A stretch of 64,000 bases of DNA from an uncultured Gammaproteobacteria bacterium (GTDB taxonomy: Bacteria > Patescibacteriota > Patescibacteriia > Magasanikbacterales > UBA922), in assembly GCA_964447765.1 (NCBI GenBank), contig CAYUTO010000002.1, positions 148,316 to 212,315 on the forward strand. The letters are read 5' to 3'. Shown here piece by piece: positions 1,783 to 43,245 of this stretch (positions are counted from its first letter, which is position 1; each line of letters begins with the position of its first letter). The notes beneath the pieces were generated by a model. It saw nothing but the letters and a program-made list of their open reading frames with translations, ran no database searches and was not told the origin of the DNA. The position numbers and the translations under genes were made by a program.

Positions 1783-1802
1783 ACAACGCATTTCGCGTAA
1801 AG

Positions 1803-3157: not shown

Positions 3158-3167
3158 ACCTGCAGCA

Positions 3168-3234: not shown

Positions 3235-3251
3235 TACACTTACTCTATCGT

Positions 3252-5442: not shown

Positions 5443-5443
5443 A

Positions 5444-5646: not shown

Positions 5647-5671
5647 GTATGGTAAAGGTGGGTATTTTGTC

Positions 5672-5700
5672 TTGACTTATTTCTTTTTGTGTGCTAGATT
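5672..5700 (+). promoter_or_regulatory. sigma70-like promoter: TTGACT (5672-5677), 17 nt, TAGATT (5695-5700). It serves lipoprotein gene 4.
   Basis: Hexamers and spacing were read directly. It is homologous to the gene-3 promoter. Confidence 0.65.
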
Positions 5701-5934
5701 ATCCTGTATTTTGAAAATCCCTGTAGCGTGTGTATTTTTTGTGTGCTAAGTACGTATGCTATGTCGCTCGAAGTATATTCGAGCGATTAGATGTTCTTTA
5801 CAGAATAGTTAGTTATTTTCACAGTCAGAGGATGGGTGTACGTATAGAGAAATACGTGTGTATATCCACCCTCTGACTGCGGAAGTTCCACAAGTTAGAG
5901 TTCGTGAGGCTAGTGTTCAAAGGAAGTCTTTAGA

Positions 5935-17936: not shown

Positions 17937-19091
17937 TCAGAGGCCGAGTGGGCAGTTTAGGTCTCCTCTTGAGATGAGGAGAGATTTGCCGCAGGGAGCC
18001 TCCGGATCGTCCACGATGGTGTACCGGCTGGCTTGAGGAACTTCCTCGTGGAGTGGATCACCGTCAATCATGATCGATTCAATCGTATCCGCGATCAGCG
18101 GGTTTCCGGGGCATTCGTACCACCCAGATTCGGGTATGTTATCGCTCTCGAGTTCGAAGTCGAGTCGAATTCCCTCACTGCATGCCTCGAGAACCGGGAT
18201 GTACATGATGTACGGTGCTCGTCCCAGCCACGTTAAGTTGTCGAACCTGAGCCACACTATATCTTGGTTATGAGGTACTTTTAAGGTGACCTCAAGGAAG
18301 ATGTAGGTGCTGAAGATGCATCCAGTGAAGGGGTCGCACCGGTCCTTCGTACCTGGATTGAAATCGGCGCATATGATGTGTTCATTCTCGCATACGCTAC
18401 TTTTGCACGTCGCGTACGTACATGCATTGAAGTCGTCGCATTCGTTGGCATCAGAACATGCACTCCCGTCTGCGACGGTGCATACACCGCCGATGGCGTC
18501 AACGCATTCTTCATTGGAGAGACAGTCTGCATTGTTGCTACACTCACGTGCTGGCGGTGCTGGAAGTGCACAACCTCCGATCGTGTCGCAGGTGGAATTG
18601 CCAGGACACTCGAGTGGTTCTCCCCATATACAGTATCCAATCTTACCATGCTCCGAACATCTCTCTTCACCATCGCACGCATTGTGGTTATTGCAGTGCC
18701 AGTCCTGCGTACATTCCAGGTATTCGACGCAGGAGCCCTCGACACAGATGAAGGCGTTAGAACCGAGTTTCGTGCAGTCAGCGCTGGTGTTACATGATAT
18801 GTCGAGCGCATCTCGTCCGTCCTGAGACGTAAGAACGTCAGAGGGGCCGAGTGAGTCCAGGGTAGACGAACTCGAGTCGGTGATATCAGTCACCGTGTTG
18901 CTGTCAGAGGGTGAACTGGTGGCGTCAGGTTCTCCGGTGGTGGTGTCAGGAACCCAGATCGTGGTGGGGGAAGTATCACGCGTGGAAGTGTTACCACTCA
19001 CGACGCTCCCGATCTTCGGGTCGATGTCGCAGCCAACGAAGGCTGTGACCATCATCATGACTGAAGTAAGAACTGAGAAGATGTATCGCAT
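17937..19091 (-). CDS. Intermediate-GC secreted lipoprotein (family member 5). It has lipobox AFVGC, a Ser/Thr/Asp-rich linker, Cys-rich CxDxNxC repeats, and the conserved C-terminal family domain.
   Basis: MRYIFSVLTSVMMMVTAFVGCD. AAGGAG sits 7 nt upstream on the minus strand. Repeats (CDDFNACTYATC, CDPFTGCIFS) resemble genes 3 and 4. The C-terminus reads ...ACSEGIRLDF...WYECPGNP...IDG...LNCPLGL. Confidence 0.75.
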   Translation of the reverse strand: MRYIFSVLTSVMMMVTAFVGCDIDPKIGSVVSGNTSTRDTSPTTIWVPDTTTGEPDATSSPSDSNTVTDITDSSSSTLDSLGPSDVLTSQDGRDALDISCNTSADCTKLGSNAFICVEGSCVEYLECTQDWHCNNHNACDGEERCSEHGKIGYCIWGEPLECPGNSTCDTIGGCALPAPPARECSNNADCLSNEECVDAIGGVCTVADGSACSDANECDDFNACTYATCKSSVCENEHIICADFNPGTKDRCDPFTGCIFSTYIFLEVTLKVPHNQDIVWLRFDNLTWLGRAPYIMYIPVLEACSEGIRLDFELESDNIPESGWYECPGNPLIADTIESIMIDGDPLHEEVPQASRYTIVDDPEAPCGKSLLISRGDLNCPLGL

Positions 19092-19224: not shown

Positions 19225-19641
19225 CTAACCTATGTCTACATTATTTGGTGTAAATGAATTTGTGTCAATTGATGAAATATCCTTCTCTCGTTTCGAGATA
19301 GTATCTTCTGTAGTATTTTTTTTGAGAATTTTGGTACTAGGAGAATAGAGTGTATTTGAAATCTTCCATTTATCGACAAACTGCCCAATACCACGTTTTT
19401 CTGTTTTATTTTTCACCGTAGTTTTTCTCTGAGACCATTTCACGAGACTTTCAAAATTGATCTTGTATCTACCAGCGACCACCACATACGTAATCTCCTG
19501 ATCACGAATAGCCCTTCGTATAGTCTGTGGATTAACTCCAAAAAGGCGTGCGGCCTCGGAAATCGAGACTCTAATTATCTCTTTTTGGTCAGGGGGTGGA
19601 ATAAGGGGGTTTGTTACCATAGTATACATTTGTATACACAA
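19225..19641 (-). CDS. Small DNA-binding protein with an excisionase/MerR-type helix-turn-helix (HTH).
   Basis: ISEAARLFGVNPQTIRRAIRDQEITYVVVAGRYKI matches the excisionase-family HTH domain. The remainder is a Lys/Thr-rich tail. Confidence 0.6.
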   Translation of the reverse strand: MCIQMYTMVTNPLIPPPDQKEIIRVSISEAARLFGVNPQTIRRAIRDQEITYVVVAGRYKINFESLVKWSQRKTTVKNKTEKRGIGQFVDKWKISNTLYSPSTKILKKNTTEDTISKREKDISSIDTNSFTPNNVDIG

Positions 19642-19770
19642 ATACTACCAATTATACGGTTTTTGTCAAGGCCTAGGCCTCTTGTGTCCACTCTAGAGAA
19701 AAGTATCGTTCATGTGTCATAGTATACTCAAAAATACAAAATTTGTATACACTAATCTATACAAATTTGT
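19627..19770. promoter_or_regulatory. Operator-like repeats of tttgtataca in the divergent HTH-gene / sigma-gene intergenic region. An inverted pair aaatttgtata...tatacaaattt lies at 19742-19769, and a third copy at 19630-19640.
   Basis: The repeats were read directly. Their location between divergent regulator genes suggests autoregulatory binding sites. Confidence 0.35.
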
Positions 19771-19942
19771 GAATAAGAGGGGATTGTGTGCTCTAAATCA
19801 CAGCTGTTACTAGAGTGAGGTTTATACGTATCTATGTGTACAGTAAGCCTTTATTTATTGGCCTTTTTATGCTATAGTCTACGGTATCTCTAAGTTGAAT
19901 GCTCTAGGCAACTGTAACACTTTTATAATCCTATCGTCTTCT

Positions 19943-20539
19943 ATGGTGAAGGCACAGAATAAGTTTAATGAAAAAAAGCTCGTCTATCGAGTTCGGGTGC
20001 ACAAAGACACCGAAGCGTTTGGCGAACTCTATGACCGGTATGTCTCCAAAATATACCGATTTATATATCTCAAGGTGTCTCACAAAGAAGAGGCTGAAGA
20101 TATTGCAAGTGAGGTATTTTTGAAGACCTGGAATTATCTGACTGATGTACAAAGAGAGGCTGATAAAGAAATAGAGAGTTTCAGTGGACTTATCTATACG
20201 ATCGCACGCACTTCCCTCATAGATTTTTTTAGAAGCCGTGCGAGACGAAAAGAATGTACCATTGAAGTCTTGGAAGCAGTAGCTCATGATTCAAATATTG
20301 AAGAATCAACTACGCGCGAACAAGAAGTGGAAGTGGTGCTCAAAAATTTAAAAATGATGAAACGTGAGTATCAGGAAATTATCGTACTCAAATATATCGA
20401 GGAATTGTCTACTACTGAAATTTCTCACATATTAGACAAGAGTACCGTGTCAATTCGGGTGACGTTGCATCGAGCCTTGAAGATTTTAAAGAAAATGATC
20501 GAAGAAAAAAAGTCTGCCTCTCGTGGAAAGAAAAAATAA
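19943..20539 (+). CDS. RNA polymerase sigma-70 family factor (ECF-like: region 2 plus region 4).
   Basis: FGELYDRYVSKIYRFIYLKVSHKEEAEDIASEVFLKTW resembles region 2. EIIVLKYIEELSTTEISHILDKSTVSIRVTLHRALKILKK resembles a region-4 HTH. The ORF track starts at 19895. The ATG at 19943 is preferred. Confidence 0.75.
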   Translation: MVKAQNKFNEKKLVYRVRVHKDTEAFGELYDRYVSKIYRFIYLKVSHKEEAEDIASEVFLKTWNYLTDVQREADKEIESFSGLIYTIARTSLIDFFRSRARRKECTIEVLEAVAHDSNIEESTTREQEVEVVLKNLKMMKREYQEIIVLKYIEELSTTEISHILDKSTVSIRVTLHRALKILKKMIEEKKSASRGKKK

Positions 20540-20569
20540 TGGCAGAAACGGTAATTAAAACCGAGGTAT

Positions 20570-21754
20570 ATGAAAGAGTTGAAATCACAACTGAAAAGAA
20601 TGAAAGACCTCGAAACTCGGATCAATCCAGATCGCGAGTGGATTTTGCGTAATCGCACACGGATGATGGCTCAGATCGAACACACCTCGCTTCAGTCGGT
20701 CGCTCATCCTGTGGAAGGAGCAAAGGTGGCACATACGGTGAGTACCTGGGCCAAAATTTTTGTACCTCAGACATTGGTCCGTTCATTGAAACCAATTGCC
20801 TCGGTCGCTTTTGCACTCATGATTACAACGGTAGGATGGATCGCAAGTGCGTATGCAGAACCAGGAGATGTACTCTGGGGAGCAAAAAGTGCGTTTAATT
20901 CCGTAGTTGAAAATGGTCGTCTCGCTCTTGCTCCAGAATCAGAACAAGCCTCGCTCAAACTTTCGTATGCTTCAAAGCAGGCACATGTACTGAAGCAGGT
21001 GGTTGAAACCACTAATGTGGAAGGTGAGAAAAAAACAAAATTAGTAGAAAAGACAGCGGATAGTCTGCAGAAAAAATTGAATTCTGCTCAGGAGAGTATC
21101 AAAGTAGTACCTCTCGTCGATTCTCTCGATTTGGTAAAAAAAGTATCACTCTCAACACAAGACATCTCGCAGACACTGAAAGAAACGTTGGAAAATGCAG
21201 AGGTGGGTGGAATTTCCGAAAAAATTGAAAAAACTGCAGTCGAGACTACGAAACAAAGTTTGGAAATGGTAGGTGATGCATTTCAGAAAAAGGCTGATGC
21301 AAATATCGAAATCTCCAATGAAGAAAAAGAAATTGTGAAAGATCATATTGATCAGGCAGTAGAATCAATCATTGCCGAAGTTTCGAAAGCTCAGATCAAA
21401 TTAAACGAACAATCTGCTTCAAGTACATTATTGTTGACTACCTCAACCATTGCGACAAATCTGTTAACCTCGTCAACTCCTCTTGCACTCACCACTTCTA
21501 CAGGTTCGACCAGTATCATGGATGCAATTGCAACAGTAAAAACAATTGATGAACAAAAAAAGACTGTTAATTCGCTCAAAGAAACCAATCTGGTAGAAGC
21601 CTTGAACACGACCAAAGCATTGGCCGAGCGAGTGACAACGGTGATTGAGCAAATAACGACACAGGGGACGATCGTGAATACACCGACTACCACTTCGATT
21701 CAAACAACTACCCCTTCTGCAAGTACTACGACAAAGCCGGTAAGTTCTACCTAA
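20570..21754 (+). CDS. Single-pass membrane protein, a putative anti-sigma factor. It has a cytoplasmic N-terminus, one TM helix, an extracytoplasmic coiled-coil, and a Thr/Ser-rich tail.
   Basis: It lies immediately downstream of, and is probably co-transcribed with, the ECF-like sigma gene. The TM segment is IASVAFALMITTVGWIA. The functional assignment rests on context only. Confidence 0.4.
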   Translation: MKELKSQLKRMKDLETRINPDREWILRNRTRMMAQIEHTSLQSVAHPVEGAKVAHTVSTWAKIFVPQTLVRSLKPIASVAFALMITTVGWIASAYAEPGDVLWGAKSAFNSVVENGRLALAPESEQASLKLSYASKQAHVLKQVVETTNVEGEKKTKLVEKTADSLQKKLNSAQESIKVVPLVDSLDLVKKVSLSTQDISQTLKETLENAEVGGISEKIEKTAVETTKQSLEMVGDAFQKKADANIEISNEEKEIVKDHIDQAVESIIAEVSKAQIKLNEQSASSTLLLTTSTIATNLLTSSTPLALTTSTGSTSIMDAIATVKTIDEQKKTVNSLKETNLVEALNTTKALAERVTTVIEQITTQGTIVNTPTTTSIQTTTPSASTTTKPVSST

Positions 21755-22140
21755 TACTATTTGGGACAAAGTGGAAGGGAAGGTATCGTAATTTCTCTTT
21801 CACTTTGCCTCGAATATATAAAAGTAGAAGCAAAGCACGCACGTTTTTTTACACTGTAATGTTCCGCCTAAGTCTCTAAGAACTGTAGGGCAATTGTGGA
21901 GGGTGAGAGTATATGCTCTCGGCTACATAATTGCCATACAGTGCCATGGATGAAAGTCTGTGGTTTAGGGGCAAAAAAACGCTCGGGTTTGGCCCTCGAG
22001 CATATCGCACCACTCATAGAAAAGTCGACCCACCGTTACAGGTGTCGGATGTAGTGGATTAATTAAAAAACGCCTATCACAGTGACATCTCGATTATATC
22101 GGGGTCGCGCACAGTTATAGGTAAAAGGTTAAAAATAGTT

Positions 22141-25100
22141 ATGAATGATGTAATTAAATTCGGTAAGAAGCTCTTTTCAGCTTCTGTAGTTGGAGTAACA
22201 ATCGCTTGGAGCATGGGCCTTGCAGCCTTCGTTCCAGTAGCTGCTCAAGCTGCAACCTGTCCAGAACTCGAAGCCGGAGATTTGTTTAAAGCGACCGGTG
22301 CCTCAGCTGTATATTATCTTACCGCTAGCATGGAACGCGCATACTTCCCACATGTGGACGTATTCAACAGTTGGAACCTTAGTTTCAACGACGTAGTAAC
22401 CGTATCTGGTGAATGTCTTTTTGCTTACCCAGCAGCAACAGTTGCAGGTATCAATTACCGACCTGGATCACGCTTGGTGAAGCTCTCAGACGCATCACCT
22501 GTATTCGCTGTTACCCCTGGTAACAAGCTTGTACAAGTTACTGGAGAATCAGCTGCAGCTCTCTATGGAACAAACTGGACATCAGTTTTACGTGATGTTA
22601 GTCCATTCCACTGGGCAAGTTACACTGACACTCGAACAACATGGGGTGAATCAAAACCTCATGATGGTCAGTTTGTAAAAAAGACTGGCGAAACAACTGT
22701 ATACTGGGTAAAAGATGGTATGCTTCATCAAGTTGATGGATCAAATGTACCTGACGTTCGCACAGTATCAGCTGCAACATTTGCAACTCTTTCAGTTGCA
22801 AGTGGATCAGTAACGGTAAGCTCTGCATACGCTAACCCAACTCAGGTTGACGGAAGCGCACCAGCAGCTAGTACTGGAGCACTCACTGTAAGTGTTGCTT
22901 CAAATACTTCAGCTTCAAAAGTTGTTCCAGGTGGAGCACAAGGAGTTGAATTTCTCGCATTTGCTGTTCGCGCAGGAAGTGAAGCTTCAACTTTGGAGCA
23001 GGTCACTTTGAAGCGCGCTGGCATCGGAAACCGAACTGACATTGAAAAGGTTTACCTTTATCACAATGGTATTCGTCTCGACAATGGACGAACAATTAAC
23101 AGTGATGATGAAGTTACTTTCAATGTTAACAAAACTATCTCAGCAAACTCAACTGAAACATTTTGGGTTAAAGCTGACATGAACACTGTTGCTGGTTCTG
23201 CAACTGCAGGATCACAAAACTACTTTGAAATTACCACTGCTTCTGAAGTAGATGGTTCTGGAACAGTAGGGGGTTCATTCCCAGTTCGTGGTAATGCAAT
23301 TACTCTTGGTGCACAAGACATCAGTAGTATTACATTGCTTGGACAGGGTAGTAATACCACTGCAAAAATCGGTGAAAATGGTGTAGTAGTAAGTGAATTT
23401 GACGCTTCTGCTGCATCTACTGATGATGTAGAATTGACTTCTGTCACTTTGAAGCAAAAAGGAACTGCTCCAGCATCTCTTCTCACCAATGTGAAATTGA
23501 TGCAGGGTGGAACTACAGTTGCAATGGGTGTAGTAAGTGGAGACTGGGTGAAATTTGATTTTACTCAGAAAGTTACGATCGAAGCTGGCGACACCAAGAG
23601 ATTCAAGGTGTATGCTGACCTCGGAATTGCTGATACCAACGATACTGTTGAACTCGTACTTGACGAGGAAGCAGACGTAATGGCATACAGTCTAGATTTC
23701 CCAGGAAGTCTTGCTGGTGTAACAAACACTTATACCACATCACAGTCACTTGCAGTGACTGTAGAAGGTGGAAAAATCAATGTTGATCTTGAAGGAACCA
23801 ACGAAGATGTACGCGTAGACCAGGACAACGTGGTATTCGGTACATTCTCTATCCTTGCAACTGCTGAAGATATTGATGTAGATACAATGGAATTCGAACT
23901 TGTTAAAACAGGTATCACAAATCCATTGGAAGATCTACGTTTGCGCGAAAAGAACGGCAAAGGTAGTTACGCACTTGAAGACACTGACACTTGTGTAATC
24001 GGAAGTACTTCATGTACTTTCACAGCAGAAAACATGATTCTCAGTAAAGGTACTACCTATGAATTCGAAATTCTAGCAGACGTACCAGCTACTGTGACTT
24101 CAGGACAAACCTACTACTTCACATGGGCAGCTGCTCAGGTGAGTGCAGAAGGTGTTTCTTCTGACAACACAGTTTCAGCAAATGATTTCTCATCAGCGTC
24201 CCTTACCGGTCCTACGATGACAGTAAATCCTTCAAAACTAACTATTCGTCAGAGTGCTCTTAGTAACGAGACTGTAGTAAACGGAACCAAGAATGTATTG
24301 GTATACCGTGGTACACTCGAAGCTGGATCAACTTCTGATGTTACTGTTACTTCTCTTACCGTTGGCGCTACCTCTACCGACCAAGCTTGGGATGGTGTAG
24401 TTGATGGTTTGAAACTCTTCATCGGTGGTGTACAGGTGTCAAATGACAACACTGTAACAAGTGAAGAAGCTGTATTCACAGGATTTAGTAATGTTATTCC
24501 TGCAGGATCAGCAAACAAAGTAACCTTCGAAGTGTACGCTGACTTGACCGACGGTTCTACTGTCGAGATGGTACAGGTACAAGTAGAAGACGCTGATGCT
24601 ACTGACGAGGATGATGACACTGTTAACGCAGTTAACGCATCTAACGTTACTGTTTCTAGCGGAAGTCCAGTTGTAGGAAGTCGTATCCTTACCATCTCTG
24701 GTACTGGTACTCTTACTGCAGTATTGGATTCAAACTACACAGGTCTTCGCAATGACTTCTACGCAGTTGCAGGCACACAGAAACAGCTTGCAGGACGCGT
24801 ACAGCTCAAAGCACTCTATGAAGATGTAGAGCTTGAAGATCTTGTAGTATATGTAAGTTCAACATGGTCAAGTGCTTCAGTTGTTGAAGCTACCTTTGAC
24901 TCATTGAACGTTTATGCTGACGCTGCAATGACCGAACTTCTCGGCACTGCTGACGTAACTAGTGGAGCTGTGACGATCGAAAACGTAGACTTCGTTGTAC
25001 CTGCTGACAGTACCAAGTATATTTACCTTGGTCTCAACTTGAACAGCGTAGGAACCGGTGACAATGGAACCGCTACTGCAAGTACTTCGATCTTCTTGGC

Positions 25101-25758
25101 ACTCCAGGACAGTGGAACTACAGCTAACGGTGTATCATCAAATGATGATATCGACCCAACTGTAACCGCTACTACTGGTAACGATATTATCGTTGCTGGT
25201 TCGACTGTATCGAATCTTGCTACCAGTTTTGCAGGTGGAAACCTTGCAGGTGGTGAACAGGTATTCTTTACCTTCGCTGTAACTGCTAACTCTGGTTCAA
25301 ACACTGACAACAGTGGAGACAACCTTGATCTCTACTTGACTCAGTTGAAACTATCACTCTCAAGTGATGTTGATAGTGTAACGAGTACTAAGCTTTGTCG
25401 TGTAAGTACTGGTAACTGTCTAAACATTTACCAGACTACTCCAGTCAGTTCAACTGTTAATAACACAACATTCTACACTCCAGGTGCATCAGGATACGTT
25501 GACGTAACCGGATTTACCAACAGTGATGATGAACGTGTTGACAATGGACAGACTGCACTCTACGAACTCCGTGGTACATTCTCAGGAGTTACAGATGCAT
25601 ACGCACAAGGAAGTATTCAGGATGTTGAAACTGGTGGTATCGTATGGGGTTATGACCTCAATGACAATGGTACACTTGACTACATCCATGCTAGCTTGTT
25701 GCAGATGGAACCTCGATCATCTGGATACCCAGATATCACAGGTGCAGCATTGAACTAA
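22141..25758 (+). CDS. Giant (1205 aa) secreted acidic surface protein rich in Thr/Ser/Val/Ala. It is S-layer-like or adhesin-like.
   Basis: Signal peptide (FSASVVGVTIAWSMGLAAFVPVAAQA). It has very few Lys/Arg/Cys and a long beta-rich repetitive composition. It is the largest ORF, has a strong terminator, and lies beside the glycosylation island. The S-layer identity is inference. Confidence 0.65.
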   Translation: MNDVIKFGKKLFSASVVGVTIAWSMGLAAFVPVAAQAATCPELEAGDLFKATGASAVYYLTASMERAYFPHVDVFNSWNLSFNDVVTVSGECLFAYPAATVAGINYRPGSRLVKLSDASPVFAVTPGNKLVQVTGESAAALYGTNWTSVLRDVSPFHWASYTDTRTTWGESKPHDGQFVKKTGETTVYWVKDGMLHQVDGSNVPDVRTVSAATFATLSVASGSVTVSSAYANPTQVDGSAPAASTGALTVSVASNTSASKVVPGGAQGVEFLAFAVRAGSEASTLEQVTLKRAGIGNRTDIEKVYLYHNGIRLDNGRTINSDDEVTFNVNKTISANSTETFWVKADMNTVAGSATAGSQNYFEITTASEVDGSGTVGGSFPVRGNAITLGAQDISSITLLGQGSNTTAKIGENGVVVSEFDASAASTDDVELTSVTLKQKGTAPASLLTNVKLMQGGTTVAMGVVSGDWVKFDFTQKVTIEAGDTKRFKVYADLGIADTNDTVELVLDEEADVMAYSLDFPGSLAGVTNTYTTSQSLAVTVEGGKINVDLEGTNEDVRVDQDNVVFGTFSILATAEDIDVDTMEFELVKTGITNPLEDLRLREKNGKGSYALEDTDTCVIGSTSCTFTAENMILSKGTTYEFEILADVPATVTSGQTYYFTWAAAQVSAEGVSSDNTVSANDFSSASLTGPTMTVNPSKLTIRQSALSNETVVNGTKNVLVYRGTLEAGSTSDVTVTSLTVGATSTDQAWDGVVDGLKLFIGGVQVSNDNTVTSEEAVFTGFSNVIPAGSANKVTFEVYADLTDGSTVEMVQVQVEDADATDEDDDTVNAVNASNVTVSSGSPVVGSRILTISGTGTLTAVLDSNYTGLRNDFYAVAGTQKQLAGRVQLKALYEDVELEDLVVYVSSTWSSASVVEATFDSLNVYADAAMTELLGTADVTSGAVTIENVDFVVPADSTKYIYLGLNLNSVGTGDNGTATASTSIFLALQDSGTTANGVSSNDDIDPTVTATTGNDIIVAGSTVSNLATSFAGGNLAGGEQVFFTFAVTANSGSNTDNSGDNLDLYLTQLKLSLSSDVDSVTSTKLCRVSTGNCLNIYQTTPVSSTVNNTTFYTPGASGYVDVTGFTNSDDERVDNGQTALYELRGTFSGVTDAYAQGSIQDVETGGIVWGYDLNDNGTLDYIHASLLQMEPRSSGYPDITGAALN

Positions 25759-25795
25759 TGTTAGTTCAATCGATCCATACTCTGTAGTAATACAG

Positions 25796-25837
25796 AAAAA
25801 ACACCCCGCCCTTCTCGAAGGGCGGGGTTGTTTTTTT
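25796..25837 (+). terminator. Strong Rho-independent terminator: ccccgccc-ttctcgaa-gggcgggg, then T-run.
   Basis: A perfect 8-bp GC stem followed by ttgttttttt. Confidence 0.8.
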
Positions 25838-25939
25838 GTTCATCATAGCTATATAGAAGACTCTCGTCTATAGGTTGCATATTACAAGTGTTTAGGCTAT
25901 GATACGTTTGCTTTTTCTATAATTTTATTAAGTTCTTCT

Positions 25940-28039
25940 ATGGTTACGAAAATCAGAAAGTTAGTCCCATACCTTATAGCAGCAACTTTTATAGCACCTC
26001 TGATTCTCCTCAATAACTATATTTTTCCTTTTATTGTTCCTAAAATAGTCTTTTTTAGATCACTCGTTCTTATTATTGCAGGCTGTTATGCGCTTTTGTT
26101 GGTTTCAAATTTTTCAAAATATAGACCACGTTTTTCATTCCTCACTACAAGTATTTTATTATTTTGGCTGAGTTTTGCTATCTCCACTTTTACCGGTGTA
26201 GATTGGTATCGTAGTTTTTGGGATAATCACGAGCGAATGCTTGGGTTGTTTACCATTACACACTACACCATACTATATCTGATTGCGTCTTCAGTTCTCG
26301 AATTTGATCGTGAGTGGAATACAGTGTTTCGCTCAGCGCTTATCCTTGGATCTCTCGTGATGCTTATCGGCGTATGGCAGAAGTTTGTGAATCCACAGGC
26401 CCTCCTCAATAACGGTTCATGGCGTGTATCTGCAACATTAGGTAATTCTATTTATTATAGTGGATACGGGCTCTTTTTGATGTTTTTGGGTGGGCTACAA
26501 TTTTTCAGGGAACAAAGTAAGAATTGGAAATATGTTGCTCTCAGTGTAGGGTTGTTAGGTTTTTTGGGTATATTTTTTGGAGGAACGAGAGGTACGATTC
26601 TTGGAATGCTTGCAGGTTTTATTACGCTGGCGTTTTGTTATATTGTATTAGAGAAAGAAAAAACCAAAACTCGAACTGTAATTACATACCTTGCTGCAGT
26701 AGGAGTTGTAGTTTTTTCCCTATTATTCGTATTTAGACAAACAGCGTTTGTCTCGGGAATTCCTGGATTGGGACGGCTTTTGAACACGTCATTTTCACTC
26801 AATTCGACTGAGAGTACTCGTCCAATGGCGTGGAGCACTGCGGTTGATGCATGGAAGGAAAAACCACTATTTGGGTGGGGACCTAATAATTTCTACTATG
26901 CGTTCAATGAGCACTACAACCCTCAATTTTTGAAATTTGGGTGGAATGAAACTTGGTTCGATAACGCGCATAGTGTTATTTTTAACACACTCACGGTCCA
27001 GGGAATTGTAGGTATTGCGACGTATCTACTCATCTATATCGCTGCCTGTACGCTTATTTTAGTAGGTGTGCGAAGGGGTATAATCAGGAGTCAGGTGGGG
27101 TATATTTCTGCATCATTTTTAGTGGCACATTTTGTAGGATTGGTGACGGTATTTGAAAATCCAACGTCCTATCTGTACTTTTTTGTCTTTGTAGCTTTTG
27201 TAGCTTTTTCTACCCGCGGTGTCGCATTGCGTAAAAAAAAGGATGTTGAAGAAAAAGAAGAAGTTGTGGTAGTGAAAAAAAATAGTATCACCGAACATGG
27301 TGCGAAAGTTTCCGCGGGTCTCGTGGTGACCGTCGGTGTTGTAGTTTTTTTGTTGGTGTATATTACTGATATTGCTCCTGCGCGAGCAAACAAGGCTACT
27401 ATTGCTGCGATACAAAAAATTTATGCAGGGGTTGCAGACGAGAGGTTGTATGATGATGCATTGGAATTTTCAAGTCCTCATATCGATGATATTAGAAACG
27501 ATATTTCGCGTACGGTCATAGGTGTGCTTCCTCAGTTGGTGCAACAAGGAAAAGGTGAAGAGGCGTTAGTACTATTCAATGAGACGATTGAGGAATTGAA
27601 AAAAAATCAATTACTCCATCCGCTCGATGTGCGGGTGTATTTTGTGCTTTCTCAGTTGTATGAATTTGGCTATCAAGCTACACAGAATACGGAATTTTTA
27701 AGTCAAAGTGAGGCTGCTCTTCGTCAGGCGGTATATTTTTCTCCCAAGCGACAGCAATTTCTCTATGCTCTTTCTCAAAATCTGATTCAACAGGGTAAGC
27801 TGCCTGAAGCAGAAGAAATACTCAAGCGGTCAATCAATGATTTCGAAAATATTGGCGAAGGATGGGTACGACTTGCGGTGATTTATGCTGCACAAAACAA
27901 AACAACAGAGGCGGTTGAAATTGCAAATAAGGTATTAGGGTGGTTCGATAATCCAACTTCTTCAATGTATCAATTGAACCTAGAATGGAAACCAGTATTG
28001 GAACAAATACGAGGGGCAGCAACGTCTACGAGCGAGTAA
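25940..28039 (+). CDS. Wzy_C / O-antigen-ligase-family polytopic membrane protein fused to a C-terminal TPR-repeat domain. It is a candidate O-oligosaccharyltransferase or polymerase.
   Basis: About 12 TM helices. RPMAWSTAVDAWKEKPLFGWGPNNFYYAF is typical of Wzy_C-family periplasmic loops. The C-terminal 250 aa have TPR-like helical repeats (LSQLYEFGYQATQNTEF..., LAVIYAAQNKTTEAVEIA). Confidence 0.6.
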   Translation: MVTKIRKLVPYLIAATFIAPLILLNNYIFPFIVPKIVFFRSLVLIIAGCYALLLVSNFSKYRPRFSFLTTSILLFWLSFAISTFTGVDWYRSFWDNHERMLGLFTITHYTILYLIASSVLEFDREWNTVFRSALILGSLVMLIGVWQKFVNPQALLNNGSWRVSATLGNSIYYSGYGLFLMFLGGLQFFREQSKNWKYVALSVGLLGFLGIFFGGTRGTILGMLAGFITLAFCYIVLEKEKTKTRTVITYLAAVGVVVFSLLFVFRQTAFVSGIPGLGRLLNTSFSLNSTESTRPMAWSTAVDAWKEKPLFGWGPNNFYYAFNEHYNPQFLKFGWNETWFDNAHSVIFNTLTVQGIVGIATYLLIYIAACTLILVGVRRGIIRSQVGYISASFLVAHFVGLVTVFENPTSYLYFFVFVAFVAFSTRGVALRKKKDVEEKEEVVVVKKNSITEHGAKVSAGLVVTVGVVVFLLVYITDIAPARANKATIAAIQKIYAGVADERLYDDALEFSSPHIDDIRNDISRTVIGVLPQLVQQGKGEEALVLFNETIEELKKNQLLHPLDVRVYFVLSQLYEFGYQATQNTEFLSQSEAALRQAVYFSPKRQQFLYALSQNLIQQGKLPEAEEILKRSINDFENIGEGWVRLAVIYAAQNKTTEAVEIANKVLGWFDNPTSSMYQLNLEWKPVLEQIRGAATSTSE

Positions 28040-28061: not shown

Positions 28062-28850
28062 ATGAAAACAGTAATTTTGTGTGGCGGAACAGGAACGCGC
28101 ATGAAAGAAGAAACAGAGTTTAAGCCTAAACCACTCGTATTGGTGGGGGGTAAGCCAATTCTCTGGCATATCATGAAAATTTACGCGCATTACGGGCATA
28201 ATGAATTTATTCTTGCATTGGGGTATAAGGGTGACATGATCAAGCAGTACTTTCTTAATTGGAGAAGCTTGCTCAATGATTTTACACTTGATACCAAAAA
28301 TCATGAATTCACCTTCCATAATAATGAATGTGACGACTTTAAAATTACCTTTGCAGAGACTGGTCCAGAAAGTTTGACTGGTGAGCGTGTACGTCGTGTT
28401 CGAAAGTATATCGGGGACGATACAGAGTTTATGGTGACGTACGGTGACGGTGTTGCAAATATCAATATTGCTGAACTGATCGATTTCCATAAAAAACAAA
28501 ATACGGCGGTAACTATTACAGGTGTTCGTCCAACACATCGATTTGGACTCCTTGATATTGATCATACGTCAGAAAAAATTAAAGGTTTTTATCAAAAACA
28601 TGTGACCAATGATACTGATAAAATTTCGAGTGATTATATTAATGGTGGATTTATGGTCTTGAACTCATCTGTTCTTGATCAGATCGAAGAAAATTCAATG
28701 ATTGAATCAATTTTTGAGCCACTTGCAAACAAAGATCAGTTGTCAGTATATAGACATAAGGGTATGTGGAAATGTATGGATACCTACAAAGAAGTTGAAG
28801 AATTAAATAAACAGTGGCACATTGATCCTTTTTGGAAAGTGTGGGCGTAA
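28062..28850 (+). CDS. rfbF: Glucose-1-phosphate cytidylyltransferase (the CDP-glucose pyrophosphorylase RfbF/DdhA).
   Basis: MKTVILCGGTGTRMKEETEFKPKPLVLVGGKPILWHIMKIYAHYGHNEFILALGYKGDMIKQYF is a near-signature for RfbF. Length is 262 aa. Confidence 0.85.
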   Translation: MKTVILCGGTGTRMKEETEFKPKPLVLVGGKPILWHIMKIYAHYGHNEFILALGYKGDMIKQYFLNWRSLLNDFTLDTKNHEFTFHNNECDDFKITFAETGPESLTGERVRRVRKYIGDDTEFMVTYGDGVANINIAELIDFHKKQNTAVTITGVRPTHRFGLLDIDHTSEKIKGFYQKHVTNDTDKISSDYINGGFMVLNSSVLDQIEENSMIESIFEPLANKDQLSVYRHKGMWKCMDTYKEVEELNKQWHIDPFWKVWA

Positions 28851-28865
28851 GTAGGTCTAAAAAAT

Positions 28866-29840
28866 ATGGGTAGTCTAATAAATCAAAATATATTGGTAAC
28901 AGGTGGTGAGGGACTGGTTGGTTCGCACCTGGTGGAGGCTCTACTTCTGAAAAAACCAGGAAAATTAGTAGTACTTTCTCGCGATCGGGATCCTCAATCA
29001 TATTTTGTAGGAACAGAGCTTGAAAACAAAGTCATACGTGCATATGGAGATTTGAAAGATAAAGAGCGGATATTCGATATCGTGACTGCGTATGAAATTA
29101 ACTATATTTTTCATATTGGTGCCCAAGCAATTGTACGTACTGCATTGGTAAATCCCTATGAAACACTTGCAAGTAATATCATGGGTACGATCCATGTGCT
29201 TGAAGCTGCGCGTCTATCCCCGCAGGTAAAAGGTGTAGTAGTTGCATCAAGTGATAAGGCGTATGGAAAAGACTGTGTGGATGCAATAGAGGATCATGAA
29301 TTACGGGGTGATCACCCATACGATGTATCAAAATCATGTACCGATCTGATTGCGCAGACGTATGCTTCGACCTATGGAGTACCAGTCACGATCAGTAGGT
29401 GTGGAAATATTTTTGGTCCAGGAGATTTGCATTTCAACCGGATTGTTCCAGGCTCCATGAAGGCGCTTATTGAGAATGAAACGTTGCAGATACGAAGTAA
29501 TGGTGAATTTGTGCGCGATTATGTGTATGTAAAAGATGTAGTGACTGGGTATGTGCTCTTAGCTGAGCAGATTGAACGTATCAAAGGCGAAGCGTTTAAT
29601 TTTAGTACGGGAAATAATTATAGTGTAATCAATCTGATAAAAAAAATATCAGAAGTTCTCGGATCTGAAATCAAATATACCATTGTAAACAATCAAAAAA
29701 ATGAAATTCCAGAACAGAGTCTAAATTATGAAAAAGTCGTAAAGATACTTGGGTGGAAGCCGGTGGTATCACTTGAGACCGCGCTACAAGAAACATATGA
29801 ATGGTATAAAAATTATTTCAGGAAACAGGAGGGGTTGTAG
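28866..29840 (+). CDS. rfbG: SDR-family NAD-dependent sugar-nucleotide 4,6-dehydratase. It is probably the CDP-glucose 4,6-dehydratase RfbG/DdhB.
   Basis: Gly-rich NAD motif VTGGEGLVGSHL. The SSDKAYG and YDVSK catalytic motifs are of 4,6-dehydratase type. It lies directly downstream of rfbF. Confidence 0.6.
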   Translation: MGSLINQNILVTGGEGLVGSHLVEALLLKKPGKLVVLSRDRDPQSYFVGTELENKVIRAYGDLKDKERIFDIVTAYEINYIFHIGAQAIVRTALVNPYETLASNIMGTIHVLEAARLSPQVKGVVVASSDKAYGKDCVDAIEDHELRGDHPYDVSKSCTDLIAQTYASTYGVPVTISRCGNIFGPGDLHFNRIVPGSMKALIENETLQIRSNGEFVRDYVYVKDVVTGYVLLAEQIERIKGEAFNFSTGNNYSVINLIKKISEVLGSEIKYTIVNNQKNEIPEQSLNYEKVVKILGWKPVVSLETALQETYEWYKNYFRKQEGL

Positions 29841-29849
29841 TAATTATCT

Positions 29850-30743
29850 ATGAGGAATGATAAGGTGAAAGTCGCAATTATTGGGACAGGTAATATCGGA
29901 AGCGATCTGCTCTACAAAGTTCAGAGATCGCCTTTTTTGCGATGTGGCTTATTCACGGGGCGCAATCAGGATTCAGAAGGTATCAGGCGCGCTAAGCGGA
30001 TGGATGTAACAGTGTCCTGTGATTCGATACGTGCAATTGAAGAAAATCCTGACTGTTGTGAAGTGGTGTTCGATACTACGAATGCGGAGTCTCATTTGAT
30101 TCATGCTCCGATATTACAGAAACTGAAAAAATTTACGATAGATCTCACTCCTTCACGTGTAGGAACCTTGTGTGTTCCGTCTATTAATATTGTTGAGGCA
30201 CTAGCAGCTGATAATGTGAATTTGATTACCTGTGGCGGACAGTCGCTTATTCCAATTGCAAAAGCAATATTGGATGTTCATCCGGAAACAGAATATGTAG
30301 AGGCTGTAGGGAGTATCGCTTCAAAATCTGCTGGTCCTGGAACTCGTGCGAATATTGAAGAATATTTACAGACAACGGCGCGCGCGATAGAGAGTTTTTC
30401 GGGTGTGCCTCGCGCAAAAGCAATTCTCATTCTCAATCCTGCAGAGCCGCCTGTATTGATGAGAAATACTCTGTATGCCAAAATTTCCAATCCTAATATT
30501 CCAGAATTGGTTAGAAAAATTACGGAGACTGTTGGTGCTATACAAGCATATGTGCCGGGATACCGCCTTGCTGCAGGACCTATTATTGAGAAAGATAGTG
30601 TGATGGTGATGGTTGAAGTGGTGGGACAGGGAGATTTTTTACCCACCTATGCTGGGAATTTAGACATTATCACCTGTGCAGCTGTTCGTGTTGCTGAAGA
30701 GTATGTAAAACATAAGTCTCAAATGGTTTCCTCTATTGTATGA
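29850..30743 (+). CDS. Acetaldehyde dehydrogenase (acetylating), DmpF/MhpF family.
   Basis: KVAIIGTGNIGSDLLYKV at the N-terminus. The catalytic-Cys region ITCGGQSLIPIAKAI is characteristic of acylating acetaldehyde dehydrogenases. Confidence 0.8.
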   Translation: MRNDKVKVAIIGTGNIGSDLLYKVQRSPFLRCGLFTGRNQDSEGIRRAKRMDVTVSCDSIRAIEENPDCCEVVFDTTNAESHLIHAPILQKLKKFTIDLTPSRVGTLCVPSINIVEALAADNVNLITCGGQSLIPIAKAILDVHPETEYVEAVGSIASKSAGPGTRANIEEYLQTTARAIESFSGVPRAKAILILNPAEPPVLMRNTLYAKISNPNIPELVRKITETVGAIQAYVPGYRLAAGPIIEKDSVMVMVEVVGQGDFLPTYAGNLDIITCAAVRVAEEYVKHKSQMVSSIV

Positions 30744-31756
30744 AAAAACCTATTTTTTTTGACTCAACTTTACGCGATGGTTCGCACGCGATTCAACATC
30801 AGCTTACTTCGGATAATGTGAGGGAATATTGTAAAATGGTGGATAATGCGGGACTCTATACCGTGATTGTCGGTCATGGAAATGGTCTCGGTGCCTCATC
30901 AGTACAGGTGGGTCTGTCACGTACATCTGATCAAGAATTACTTGCTGCAGCTCGATCTGAGTTGAAGGTTACAAAGCTGGGCGTTTTTATATTGCCGGGA
31001 TTTGGAACAATTGAAAATGATTTAGTTCCAGCACTCGAATTAGGAGTTGATCTCGTCTGTGTTGCGTCTCACTGCACAGAAGCTGATGTGACGAAACAAT
31101 ATATTAGTCGGGTAGCAAAGGAGCAAAAAGAGGTATATGGTATTCTCATGATGTATCATATGACTACAAAAGAGCGTCTCCTCGCAGAGGCAGAAAAAAT
31201 GGTAAGCTATGGGGCTATCGGTATCATCATCATGGATTCAGCAGGATCTTCAACACCAGGATTAGTTCGGGAAACCATCTCGTATCTGGTTGAACACCTG
31301 CAGGTACCTGTGGGATTTCATGCGCATAATAATCTGGGAATGGCGATTGGAAATACATTGATAGCACTTGAATCAGGTGCGACCATTGTTGATGGTACGG
31401 TACGTGGATTTGGTGCTGGTGCAGGAAATTGTCAGATTGATGTGATGGTGGCATTGCTTGAAAAAATGGGACATACTACGGGAATTAATGTATATGATTT
31501 GATGGACGCAGCTGATAAGGTGGTGAAAAAAATTATGACCCAACCACAAGAGATTGATTCAGTAAGTATTGCGAGTGGTATGGCAGGTGTATTTTCAGGA
31601 TTTGCGCCACATGTGAAGCGAGCTGCGGAAAAATTTGGGGTTGATGCGCGAGATATTTTTGTTGAACTCGGCAAAAGAAGAGTTGTTGGCGGACAAGAAG
31701 ATATGGTGATTGAGGTGGCGATTGAATTATCAAAAAAGAAAAATGTATTATCATAA
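30740..31756 (+). CDS. 4-hydroxy-2-oxovalerate aldolase-like (DmpG/MhpE family, DRE-TIM metallolyase).
   Basis: PIFFDSTLRDGSHAIQHQLT matches the DmpG active-site region (D.TLRDG.HA..HQ). It overlaps the upstream DmpF-like gene by 4 nt, as in dmpFG operons. Confidence 0.8.
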   Translation: MKKPIFFDSTLRDGSHAIQHQLTSDNVREYCKMVDNAGLYTVIVGHGNGLGASSVQVGLSRTSDQELLAAARSELKVTKLGVFILPGFGTIENDLVPALELGVDLVCVASHCTEADVTKQYISRVAKEQKEVYGILMMYHMTTKERLLAEAEKMVSYGAIGIIIMDSAGSSTPGLVRETISYLVEHLQVPVGFHAHNNLGMAIGNTLIALESGATIVDGTVRGFGAGAGNCQIDVMVALLEKMGHTTGINVYDLMDAADKVVKKIMTQPQEIDSVSIASGMAGVFSGFAPHVKRAAEKFGVDARDIFVELGKRRVVGGQEDMVIEVAIELSKKKNVLS

Positions 31757-31759
31757 TGT

Positions 31760-33556
31760 ATGAATGTCGCTGATTTTATTTTCAAATACTTTGGTGAACG
31801 TGGTGTAAATCACGTCTTTACGATTACCGGAGGGCACGCGATGTTTTTAAACGATGCGGTTGCTAAAAACAAAAATTTTACATACACCTGCCCTCATCAT
31901 GAGCAAAGCGCAGCTATGGCTGCTGAGGCATATAGTCGTGTGGCAAATAAGCCAGGAATTGTAATGGTTACTGCAGGTCCTGGAGCAGTGAATGCGCTCA
32001 CAGGGGTCGTAGGTGCTTGGGTAGATTCTTCACCAATGATTGTTATTTCCGGCCAATCAAATTTACCTATCGTGCAGTACGCAGAAAAAACAGATATTCG
32101 ACAATTTGGTGTGCAGGGGATTAGTATTAGAAAAATAGTGACCCCAATTACCAAGTATTTTGTAACAGTGGATGATCCAGCTCGGATCGGAGAATATGTG
32201 GCTGAAGCATGGAAACAGGTAACGACAGGCAGGCCTGGTCCTGTGTGGATTGAGGTGCCAGTCGATATGCAACGCTCAGAAGTACCACAATCAGTAATCG
32301 ATGCTTATGGGTCGCCAGAAGACATATTAATTAAACCTGAGGAAGCATCGAAGGAGTTGTTAGAAAAAGTCGCTGCAGTATATGAGCGCATTCAAAAAGC
32401 AGAGCGACCACTGTTTATTTTTGGACAAGGTGTTCGATTGTCCGGAGGAATTTCAGCTTTTGAAGCAGTGATTAAAAAAATAAAAATTCCACTTCTAACA
32501 TCACGATTGGGTTTGGATATTATTACGAGTGATCATCCACTGTATGCGGGTCGTCCAGGAACCTATGGAGAGCGTTCAGCAAATTTTGCTGTGCAAAATG
32601 CTGATTTGATTATTGCAATTGGATCTCGTCTCACCGTTTCTCTGACCGGGTATAATGTAGCCGATTTTGGTCGTAATGCAGAAAAAATTATTGTCGATAT
32701 TGATCAAAAAGAATTAGAAAAACCAGATTTAAATATTGTATTACCCGTATTAGCTGACGCAAAAGTGTTTTTAACTGAATTAGCGGCATATGCTGAAGAT
32801 AAGTCGAGTATTGAAAGACCTGAATGGGCGGAGATTTGTCAGAATTGGCGAAAAAAATATCCTGTAGTATTACCTTCGTATAAAGATGAAAAACCAGTGA
32901 ATTCGTATTACTTCACCGGTCGTTTAACTGAGCTCACTCCACCGGGTGCAAACATTCTCGTTGATACGGGATCTTGTTTTCATGTCGCAGCACAAACATG
33001 GGTAATAAAAGAAGGGCAGAGATTTTTGACTACCGGAGGAATTTCTACTATGGGGTATTGGGTGGCAGGTATCGGATCATGTATTGCCGCAGGAAATAAG
33101 CCCACTATAGTGATTACTGGAGATGGTAGTTTGCAAATGAATTTACAGGAGTTAGCAACTGTCAAAATAAATAATTTGCCTCTGAAGATTTTTATTTTTA
33201 ATAACAATGGTTATTTATTGATGCGCCATACGCAACGTAATTTTTTTGAAGGTCGTATGATTGGGGAGAGTCCGGCGTCCGGCGTCTGGTGCCCTGATTC
33301 TCTAAAAATTGCAGAAGTGTATGGTATCAAAGGAGTTCGTATTTCCTCAGTGGATGAGGTAGATCAGAAAATTAAAGAGGTACTAGACCATGACGGACCT
33401 GTAATTTGTGATGTGATGACTCCTGAATGGCAATTTCTCATGCCTCGGGTGACATCGGAAAAAGGTCCTGATGGAAAAATGTTTTCGAATCCTTATGAAA
33501 ATATGTTTCCATTTTTGAGTAAAGAAGAGCTTGATGAAAATATGATTGTAACCTAA
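31760..33556 (+). CDS. Thiamine-pyrophosphate (TPP)-dependent enzyme of the acetolactate-synthase large-subunit family (YerE-like candidate).
   Basis: Canonical ALS/TPP N-terminal domain: GVNHVFTITGGHAMFLNDAVA...CPHHEQSAAMAAEAYSRVANKPGIVMVTAGPGAVNALTGVVGAWVDSSPMIVISGQ. It is 598 aa and has a GDGS TPP-binding region. Confidence 0.75.
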   Translation: MNVADFIFKYFGERGVNHVFTITGGHAMFLNDAVAKNKNFTYTCPHHEQSAAMAAEAYSRVANKPGIVMVTAGPGAVNALTGVVGAWVDSSPMIVISGQSNLPIVQYAEKTDIRQFGVQGISIRKIVTPITKYFVTVDDPARIGEYVAEAWKQVTTGRPGPVWIEVPVDMQRSEVPQSVIDAYGSPEDILIKPEEASKELLEKVAAVYERIQKAERPLFIFGQGVRLSGGISAFEAVIKKIKIPLLTSRLGLDIITSDHPLYAGRPGTYGERSANFAVQNADLIIAIGSRLTVSLTGYNVADFGRNAEKIIVDIDQKELEKPDLNIVLPVLADAKVFLTELAAYAEDKSSIERPEWAEICQNWRKKYPVVLPSYKDEKPVNSYYFTGRLTELTPPGANILVDTGSCFHVAAQTWVIKEGQRFLTTGGISTMGYWVAGIGSCIAAGNKPTIVITGDGSLQMNLQELATVKINNLPLKIFIFNNNGYLLMRHTQRNFFEGRMIGESPASGVWCPDSLKIAEVYGIKGVRISSVDEVDQKIKEVLDHDGPVICDVMTPEWQFLMPRVTSEKGPDGKMFSNPYENMFPFLSKEELDENMIVT

Positions 33557-43183: not shown

Positions 43184-43245
43184 CATTCAAATTTATAGTG
43201 AACCTATATAGTTGAGGTTTTGAGAGGCTTTATAACTTGTCTAGT

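Follow-up and report, generated by a model that had tools for sequence, protein, structure and literature searches.

In the Bacillales, WsaB of Geobacillus stearothermophilus and WsfB of Paenibacillus alvei are predicted surface-layer (S-layer) O-oligosaccharyltransferases that carry the Wzy_C domain of PilO and PglL. A TPR motif is present at the C-terminus of WsfB and PglL; WsaB has none, and wsaA, which lies immediately upstream of wsaB, codes for a 168-residue TPR protein. The sgsE gene lies near its own slg cluster and is transcribed alone, and slg clusters contain an Asn-synthase homologue and an initiating Gal-1-P transferase (PMC2943079 for all of these features). Here, we describe a locus with a related layout in a 64 kb stretch of Magasanikbacterales DNA, from an uncultured bacterium of the ultra-small Patescibacteria (contig CAYUTO010000002.1, positions 148,316–212,315; 'the window' denotes this whole stretch). 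The gene for a 1205-residue secreted protein, referred to as the giant, is preceded by genes for an extracytoplasmic function (ECF) sigma factor and a single-pass membrane protein. It is followed by a gene for a membrane protein in which a Wzy_C domain is fused to TPR repeats (Wzy_C-TPR) and by a glycan-biosynthesis island. A preliminary description of the window had interpreted this as a module for the expression and glycosylation of an S-layer protein. This interpretation is partly supported, by evidence that is strong but circumstantial, and we consider the chances to be even that this is a conserved Magasanikbacteria locus for a major cell-surface protein to which Wzy_C-TPR contributes glycan transfer.

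A glycosylated S-layer has been speculated for the candidate phyla radiation (CPR, Patescibacteria; PMC5220378), and there are both observations of S-layers on some Patescibacteria cells and predictions of them for certain lineages (bioRxiv 10.1101/2024.05.28.596244; PMC13293708). Our literature search retrieved no paper that links Magasanikbacteria to S-layers or names S-layer genes there.

Gene order and its conservation

The four open reading frames (ORFs) named in the preliminary description were found in the 64 kb window where it had placed them, and the sigma factor, the single-pass membrane protein, the giant, the terminator, Wzy_C-TPR and the glycan island are all present as it had stated. 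The elements of the conserved unit, in window positions, are the following.

19913–19938, + strand: ECF-type promoter TGTAAC-N16-CGTC, 4 nt before the ATG at 19943 and within the mechanically called, TTG-start ORF
19943–20539, + strand: ECF (group 4) sigma-70 factor with Sigma70_r2, r4_2 and Sigma70_ECF matches; the mechanical ORF runs from TTG 19895
20570–21754, + strand: DUF5667-family single-pass membrane protein of 394 residues, with about 72 cytoplasmic residues, a single transmembrane (TM) segment, an outer domain that is helical and a tail rich in Thr and Ser
21882–21944, + strand: long, conserved RNA hairpin that opens the leader of the giant, with a conserved stem base ACUGUAUGGC...GCCAUACAGU and a hypervariable, paired upper stem
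21945–22140, + strand: rest of the structured leader, containing more hairpins as well as GGGGCAAAAAAAC and AAAGGTCGA, words that are conserved
22141–22251, + strand: signal peptide of the giant (residues 1–37), cleavage after AQA
22252–22770, + strand: three-repeat α/β module of the giant (residues 38–210), a candidate cell-wall anchor
22771–22875, + strand: low-complexity Thr/Ser/Ala/Pro/Gly linker (residues 211–245)
22876–25758, + strand: all-β region (residues 246–1205) and stop codon, read as a string of tandem Ig-like β-sandwiches
25803–25828, bidirectional: intrinsic terminator that follows the gene of the giant, with an 11 bp stem containing eight GC pairs
25940–27379, + strand: membrane domain of Wzy_C-TPR (residues 1–480), with 13 TM helices, the N-terminus inside and the catalytic loop 265–345 outside
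27380–28039, + strand: extracytoplasmic TPR domain of Wzy_C-TPR (residues 481–699)

Relatives of the giant and of Wzy_C-TPR occur almost only in assemblies of Candidatus Magasanikbacteria and other Patescibacteria, and each homologue of the giant is unnamed or called 'hypothetical' in its record. Eight further loci were reached via giant homologues with 26–43% identity. In all nine giant-found loci (the window and these eight) the order is kept: an ECF sigma factor gene is followed by the gene for the single-pass DUF5667 protein (375–470 residues), the giant, an optional TPR gene of about 230 residues and a Wzy_C gene of 670–800 residues. The giants of loci that share this order are only 25–45% identical, and the glycan genes beyond Wzy_C vary by species.

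A profile search with Wzy_C-TPR led to 80 species-level loci that were fetched, 65 of which have enough upstream sequence. In 51 of these 65 Magasanikbacteria loci, the 10 kb upstream of Wzy_C encode a giant on the same strand, and in about 28 of the 51 it directly adjoins Wzy_C. Since the same order recurs in dozens of species, the arrangement is far beyond chance. The synteny between Wzy_C-TPR and large surface proteins, which had been put forward as a check on the earlier interpretation, is thus strongly conserved from whichever gene the search is started. The Wzy_C gene is linked to the gene of its presumed protein substrate, and Wzy_C-TPR is very probably tied functionally to the giant. 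The pilO gene likewise lies directly behind the gene of its substrate.

Large ORFs (1200–1300 residues) upstream of Wzy_C in two of our loci, L022 and L081, were considered as diverged giants and ruled out (hhalign probability below 1%). One species has two tandem giant paralogues (L050, positions 255–7887). The records of L008, L011–L014 and others with a Magasanikbacteria-type locus are titled 'uncultured Gammaproteobacteria bacterium', which probably reflects wrong labelling in the pipeline used for submission.

The closest parallel is the Geobacillus arrangement sgsE–wsaA(TPR)–wsaB(Wzy_C), a resemblance in organization that does not imply the same activity. As in the S-layer glycosylation loci of the Bacillales, the gene of an acidic secreted surface protein with its own transcription signals lies near a glycan cluster. 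In common with the slg clusters, there are a TPR domain that is either fused or split off, a Wzy_C transferase, an initiating sugar-phosphate transferase, nucleotide-sugar genes, glycosyltransferases and an Asn-synthase homologue. In contrast, the giant has no detectable sequence relationship to SgsE or SpaA and carries the three-repeat module instead of SLH domains, a Wzx flippase is found where G. stearothermophilus has an ABC transporter, and an ECF sigma/DUF5667 pair belongs to the conserved unit. The host, moreover, is a Patescibacterium with a reduced genome. Compared with known S-layer glycoprotein loci, the anchor-like module, the built-in sigma pair and the leader RNA are new.

The giant protein and its N-terminal module

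The giant (22141–25758, + strand) has 1205 residues, a molecular weight of 126 kDa, a pI of 4.17, a Ser plus Thr content of about 22% and six Cys residues. Its signal peptide contains a hydrophobic segment at residues 16–34 and ends with AQA37. This is in agreement with the acidic, Thr/Ser-rich secreted protein of the preliminary description. Beyond the signal peptide, a hydropathy scan shows no further hydrophobic segment and hence no C-terminal membrane anchor; a sortase motif was not searched for separately. The protein thus combines features that are expected of S-layer proteins, being secreted, between 40 and 200 kDa, acidic, poor in Cys and composed of multiple domains.

At the sequence level nothing meaningful is found for the giant in Pfam, NCBIfam or the PDB. 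The AlphaFold2 model, calculated with 100 homologues (pLDDT 91.6, pTM 0.50), consists of an N-terminal α/β part of about 200 residues followed by a long all-β region. The latter is read as a series of tandem Ig-like domains because Foldseek returns such proteins. Ig-like arrays are common among S-layer proteins (bioRxiv 10.1101/2024.05.28.596244). The S-layer-like β-domains that were anticipated from the sequence are therefore matched by a confident all-β model with tandem Ig-like and macroglobulin-domain hits, and by a distant homologue (P0110) that carries SLH domains. Column conservation is 0.6 at the N-terminus of the giant and declines to 0.3 towards the C-terminus, and the all-β region of the model presumably represents the variable, exposed part. 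The length of the family stays within about 1100–1350 residues (130 homologues, every one of them from Patescibacteria).

The linker between the two parts holds the only segment of the model with a pLDDT below 50 (mature residues 202–208). Over 100 homologues its composition is 16% Thr, 14% Ala, 12% Ser, 11% Gly and 6% Pro, and residues 211–245 are a plausible site of O-glycosylation.

Codon bias in the giant gene is the strongest among the normal-GC genes of the window (Nc of 40.7 versus 45–56 at similar GC3). No other terminator-like hairpin in the 64 kb is as stable as the one that follows the gene (−25 kcal/mol versus −21 kcal/mol for the next), as claimed previously. Together with the structured leader, these are sequence-derived proxies for expression. 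On the whole, the giant is probably a major wall-anchored surface protein or S-layer-like protein.

The N-terminal module is the best-conserved part of the giant (about 40–50% identity) and is built from three units that resemble each other in their secondary-structure pattern. No known wall-anchor domain (SLH, CWB2 etc.) is found in the giant by Pfam or PDB searches. A full-library search finds the module in 2963 protein clusters, 927 of them at E ≤ 1e-10, in proteins of 195–2178 residues. It is mostly located right behind the signal peptide and sometimes at the C-terminus, and its partner domains include β-helix, TSP1 (thrombospondin), β-propeller, fn3 and the archaeal-type S-layer domain PF07752. 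In P0110, which is 28% identical to the giant over 683 alignment columns of the β-domain region, three SLH domains occupy the place of the module. Because the module is shared, swappable, proximal to the signal peptide and made of three repeats like SLH and CWB2, we infer that it has a wall-anchoring role. It would then be a non-covalent cell-wall anchor and a functional counterpart of SLH and CWB2. Like these, it measures about 170 residues in three repeats, sits beside the signal peptide, is common to the main surface protein and many secreted proteins and can be swapped. Unlike them, it resembles no Pfam family or PDB chain in sequence, as profile searches with residues 38–222 gave no match.

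The sigma factor operon and the leader RNA

The sigma factor contains the sigma-2 and sigma-4 domains only (PF04542 and PF08281) and scores 79.4 bits with the NCBIfam ECF superfamily model TIGR02937 (cutoff 42.9), which substantiates its earlier designation as ECF-like. The best NCBIfam subfamily is the BldN-like TIGR02952, with 120.7 bits, under the cutoff of 206.

The promoter upstream of the sigma factor gene has AAC in its −35 and CGT in its −10 element, as is typical of ECF autoregulatory promoters. As it lies inside the ORF that begins at TTG 19895, this start is probably wrong and the real start is most likely ATG 19943. From this ATG, the positions imply a leaderless sigma mRNA and a sigma factor that is autoregulated from its own promoter. 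A scan of both strands of 1.5 Mb of related loci for TGTAAC-N16-CGTC gave 41 occurrences, 37 of which are assigned to the start of a sigma gene, typically ending 5–8 nt before it. The same leaderless geometry is seen at the sigma gene in more than 35 species.

The 394-residue membrane protein has a single hydrophobic segment around residues 73–94. Its gene starts 30 nt after the sigma gene, is always directly behind it, and keeps this position in 48 loci. The copy in the window has no match of its own in Pfam or NCBIfam; 25 of 41 orthologues match PF18915 (DUF5667), and comparison of the profile with the PDB gives only coiled-coil or helical-bundle chains. A gene directly downstream of the sigma gene and a single-pass protein with a short cytoplasmic N-terminus are what is found for ECF anti-sigma factors, and by position and topology the DUF5667 protein is a putative anti-sigma factor or sensor. 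Of the sigma/anti-sigma pair proposed earlier, the ECF sigma factor and its adjoining single-pass partner are therefore retained, while the term 'anti-sigma' is a positional assignment that lacks sequence support. Our literature search found no paper that mentions DUF5667.

A comparison can be made with sigma-BldN and RsbN of Streptomyces, which control the chaplin and rodlin genes of the surface sheath. The BldN family is the best subfamily match here, and in both cases an ECF sigma factor is followed by a single-pass partner without a recognizable anti-sigma domain, beside a surface-layer protein gene. Unlike for sigma-BldN, the score remains below the subfamily cutoff and the promoter motif is found only in front of the sigma gene.

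The region of 386 nt upstream of the giant gene contains the long hairpin, about 200 nt before the gene. In the window this hairpin has a folding energy of −34.3 kcal/mol (z = −7.3), and over the loci the z-scores range from −5 to −11; the whole 262 nt leader has z = −4.5. The same shape is present in 30 of 30 species loci examined: a 10 bp stem base is fixed, while the upper stems are unrelated in sequence and also differ in length, resulting in totals of 49–128 nt (equivalents are, for example, L078:904–956 and L086:5456–5523). Of the 49 copies of the nine-base word GCCATACAG in the fetched loci, 33 lie no more than 400 nt upstream of a giant gene, and the word is nearly confined to this position; AAGGTCGA is present in 26 of 48 upstream regions. 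The + strand of the hairpin folds better than the − strand, with 85 versus 29 G–U pairs and summed energies of −994 versus −811 kcal/mol. As the sense strand folds so much better, the hairpin is an RNA element on the strand of the giant. This also led us to reject a DNA element (a recombinase inverted repeat or an operator), and a terminator of the sigma operon was rejected because no U-run follows the hairpin. The hairpin has no match in Rfam, and Rfam and tRNA scans of the whole window gave none either. A long structured leader whose 5′ end is base-paired is a known trait of S-layer mRNAs with long lifetimes, and a perfect duplex of 20–28 bp is a substrate for RNase III. The leader hairpin could stabilize the 5′ end, be cut by RNase III or bind a protein.

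No convincing shared −35/−10 pair can be read upstream of the leader hairpin, and there is no terminator-like site between 21755 and 22140. As no terminator separates the sigma operon from the giant, the two may be coupled by read-through and processing at the hairpin.

A further DNA-binding protein is encoded on the other side of the sigma gene.

19225–19641, − strand: HTH_17 DNA-binding protein (PF12728, 6.2e-08), divergent from and to the left of the sigma gene

A homologue is found in the same place in eight of the nine giant-found loci (in the exception, L091, the contig ends there) and in 43 fetched loci. TGTATACA palindromes are located at 19631 and 19744, in or beside the intergenic region between the HTH_17 and sigma genes (19642–19900). 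They recur in the corresponding region of L001, L003 and L006, often inside the longer word TTTGTATACA. The palindromes are likely to be operator sites for the HTH_17 protein.

Glycan transfer and alternative explanations

Wzy_C-TPR (25940–28039, + strand; 699 residues) matches the Wzy_C family PF04932 with 63.6 bits (cutoff 31.7) and has C-terminal TPR repeats, with Pfam matches at residues 590–680, so that its earlier assignment as a Wzy_C membrane protein fused to TPR holds. The AlphaFold2 model has a pLDDT of 86.7 and a pTM of 0.85. The charge distribution (positive-inside) supports an N-in topology with 13 helices, which places both the catalytic loop and the TPR domain outside the membrane. 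The closest fold is that of the WaaL ligase (PDB entry 7TPG; TM-score of 0.64 on the target). Arg217, Arg294 and His344 are invariant in the family and align with the conserved Arg/Arg/His residues of 7TPG and of the oligosaccharyltransferase 9RMK. The domain, the polytopic WaaL-like fold and the Arg/Arg/His set around an outer loop identify the protein as a member of the Wzy_C superfamily. A literature search on PDB entry 9RMK found nothing relevant.

Across the class the Wzy_C-TPR family has 45–50% identity and is much better conserved than the giant. Its TPR domain contains the invariant motifs SPHIDDIRND, Asn556/His560/Pro561/Asp563/Arg565 and Ser601/Arg604/Gln605/Gln606, and these polar residues suggest a specific binding site. 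A separate TPR gene of about 230 residues is located between the giant and Wzy_C in L001, L003, L042 and others. A TPR that is fused or encoded by a neighbouring gene is a trait of O-oligosaccharyltransferases, but it does not discriminate here, as a second Wzy_C paralogue also has a TPR. Two TPR-bearing paralogues, one of about 680 and one of about 720–790 residues, are found downstream of the giant in several species, among them L012, L042, L068, L075 and L084. Elsewhere in the window (9586–11061, + strand), a Wzy_C-family protein of 491 residues with about ten TM segments and without a TPR lies between two GT4 genes; it may polymerize or ligate a glycan of its own.

With PglL, PilO and TfpO the Magasanikbacteria enzyme shares the Wzy_C domain and the Arg/His residues, and PglL in addition has a C-terminal TPR (PMC2943079). 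It differs from them in that the similarity is remote (E of about 1e-07 to 9RMK), the host is a monoderm and the presumed substrate is an Ig array instead of a pilin. WaaL of Cupriavidus metallidurans (7TPG) is the best structural match and has the same conserved residues; unlike Wzy_C-TPR, it uses lipid A-core as the acceptor and has 12 TM helices, without the extra helix or the outward-facing TPR. Genes for lipid A biosynthesis appear to be missing from the CPR genomes examined to date (PMC5220378), and none were seen in the 64 kb window.

The sugar-biosynthesis and transferase island that had been noted downstream of Wzy_C-TPR comprises the following.

28062 to about 61863: glycan island of about 34 kb, with nucleotide-sugar enzymes, about 15 glycosyltransferases (many of GT2 or GT4 type), DegT and UDP-glucose dehydrogenase
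28062–33556, + strand: nucleotidyltransferase, 4,6-dehydratase-type epimerase, acetaldehyde dehydrogenase with HMGL-type aldolase (DmpFG-like) and a TPP-dependent enzyme
38159–40426, + strand: 755-residue protein with at least ten hydrophobic segments (10-TM) and no Pfam match, directly upstream of the Wzx gene
40428–41729: Wzx flippase (Polysacc_synt)
43237–45126: Asn-synthase homologue
48438–52566, + strand: two consecutive pairs of GT2 and PMT_2 (GT-C), the small GT2 being of the polyprenyl-phosphate sugar synthase type
60439–61863, − strand: initiating Bac_transf transferase

The initiating transferase, the flippase, the glycosyltransferases and the nucleotide-sugar enzymes all occur within one island, as in lipid-linked pathways of the Wzx/Wzy type. 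The 755-residue protein is a candidate repeat-unit polymerase, and the GT2–PMT_2 pairs may glycosylate proteins or polymers outside the cytoplasm. The gene set at 28062–33556 is reminiscent of the biosynthesis of branched-chain deoxysugars (yersiniose type).

Variable adjacent glycan islands and an outward TPR favour a protein transferase, for which we see an even chance. Sequence and fold do not separate a protein O-oligosaccharyltransferase from a ligase or polymerase. Several results weigh against an S-layer locus with a dedicated protein-glycosylating enzyme. No O-oligosaccharyltransferase-specific model in Pfam or NCBIfam matches Wzy_C-TPR, and the profile of its membrane domain is about equally, and in both cases weakly, related to WaaL (5.4e-08) and to 9RMK (2.6e-07). 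As the giant is accompanied in many genomes by two Wzy_C paralogues that both bear a TPR, TPR alone is no mark of a protein transferase. In 14 of the 65 Wzy_C-found loci, the Wzy_C-TPR gene has no giant homologue nearby, and the two PMT_2 enzymes of the island could glycosylate proteins instead. For the giant, the matches that a Foldseek search finds in the PDB are all generic proteins with tandem Ig or macroglobulin domains, and no specific S-layer protein is among them. On the regulatory side, TGTAAC-N16-CGTC is not found upstream of the giant or Wzy_C genes in the 1.5 Mb of related loci, and searches of Pfam, NCBIfam and PDB profiles detect no anti-sigma domain such as zf-HC2 or RskA in the window protein or its 41 orthologues.

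The leading alternative, which is equally well precedented although we hold it to be unlikely, is that Wzy_C-TPR and its paralogue polymerize a wall glycopolymer or ligate it to peptidoglycan or lipid. This polymer would be the ligand of the N-terminal module, and the giant would be unglycosylated. It is in agreement with WaaL being the closest fold, with a profile E-value that is marginally better for WaaL than for 9RMK, and with a conservation of both Wzy_C-TPR and the N-terminal module far above that of the β-region, as in an anchor–ligand pair. In Bacillus anthracis (csaAB) and in Clostridioides difficile (the anionic polymer locus), S-layer genes also adjoin genes for wall polymers, which fits the same explanation. 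However, the wall polymers of monoderms are normally attached by LCP enzymes and not by Wzy_C, and a separate 10-TM polymerase candidate is present beside Wzx. The neighbouring glycan islands differ greatly by species, which better fits a variable surface glycan, and an outward TPR is reported for the protein-directed WsfB, PglL and WsaA/WsaB (PMC2943079).

Somewhat less likely still is that the giant acts as a host-attachment adhesin or fibril of an episymbiont and not as a lattice-forming S-layer protein, although the two roles are compatible with each other. Patescibacteria are widely inferred to be host-attached (PMC13293708), the top Foldseek matches include tandem Ig-like adhesin and filament proteins (PrgB, mastigoneme proteins), the outer domains evolve fast, and a pTM of just 0.50 is consistent with a flexible rod. 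On the other hand, the length of the giant is tightly kept without variation in repeat number, no hydrophobic C-terminal segment was found, one homologue has SLH domains, and the codon bias, the structured leader and the strong terminator also speak against this reading. Glycosylation of the giant by the PMT_2 enzymes of the island, with polyprenyl-phosphate monosaccharides supplied by the partner GT2s and Wzy_C-TPR serving another glycan, is improbable: PMT-family enzymes do O-mannosylate secreted proteins in Actinobacteria and two GT2–PMT_2 pairs are at hand, but the pairs lie 23–27 kb from the giant and are absent from the flanks read in other loci, where Wzy_C is always adjacent.

Some further genes were observed at the left side of the window. 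The first 8 kb (1–8205) have a GC content of 53–63% compared with about 40% elsewhere, at least in part because of the ORFs there (364–1782 and 5935–8205), which encode collagen-triple-helix repeat proteins and Cys-rich secreted proteins with Dicty_CTDC repeats. A Cys-rich secreted protein related to the latter is encoded at 17937–19091 (− strand), and similar Dicty_CTDC and DUF11/CLIPPER genes adjoin the locus in other species.

The analysis establishes the gene content, the folds and the topology, the conserved synteny, the modular use of the anchor-like module, the RNA hairpin and the autoregulatory promoter; lattice formation, binding to the wall, anti-sigma activity, co-transcription and glycosylation of the protein are what the model proposes beyond these. 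In the S-layer model, the giant would be exported by Sec and held on the wall non-covalently by its N-terminal three-repeat module, with the fast-evolving all-β Ig-like region facing outward as beads on a string, as in S-layer proteins. The leader of about 260 nt, with its hairpin as a 5′ stabilizer or RNase III processing site, would allow high and stable expression. The ECF sigma factor would drive its own leaderless operon from TGTAAC-N16-CGTC, and the DUF5667 protein would most likely tether it at the membrane and sense the envelope. A glycan linked to undecaprenyl diphosphate would be started by Bac_transf, extended by the glycosyltransferases of the island and flipped by Wzx. The outward TPR domain would then engage the acceptor, and Wzy_C-TPR would move the glycan to Ser/Thr (or Tyr) residues of the giant, similar to WsaB and WsfB.

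Taken as a whole, we put forward only tentatively that the giant is the S-layer protein of Magasanikbacteria, with a Patescibacteria-wide anchor module (about 3000 clusters), control by the ECF/DUF5667 pair and the RNA hairpin, and O-glycosylation by Wzy_C-TPR. The locus yields candidates for a coat protein, a wall anchor, a protein-glycosylating enzyme and a regulatory RNA plus sigma circuit. If the enzyme is an O-oligosaccharyltransferase of relaxed specificity, its origin in a very distant lineage could make it of interest to glycoengineers. The anchor-like module in thousands of secreted CPR proteins bears on the prediction of surface proteomes. Patescibacteria account for a large share of bacterial diversity, and the locus bears on the biology of their envelope: if the model is true, it would represent a complete and conserved module for building the envelope, in a phylum for which envelope biogenesis has been described as unclear (PMC5220378).

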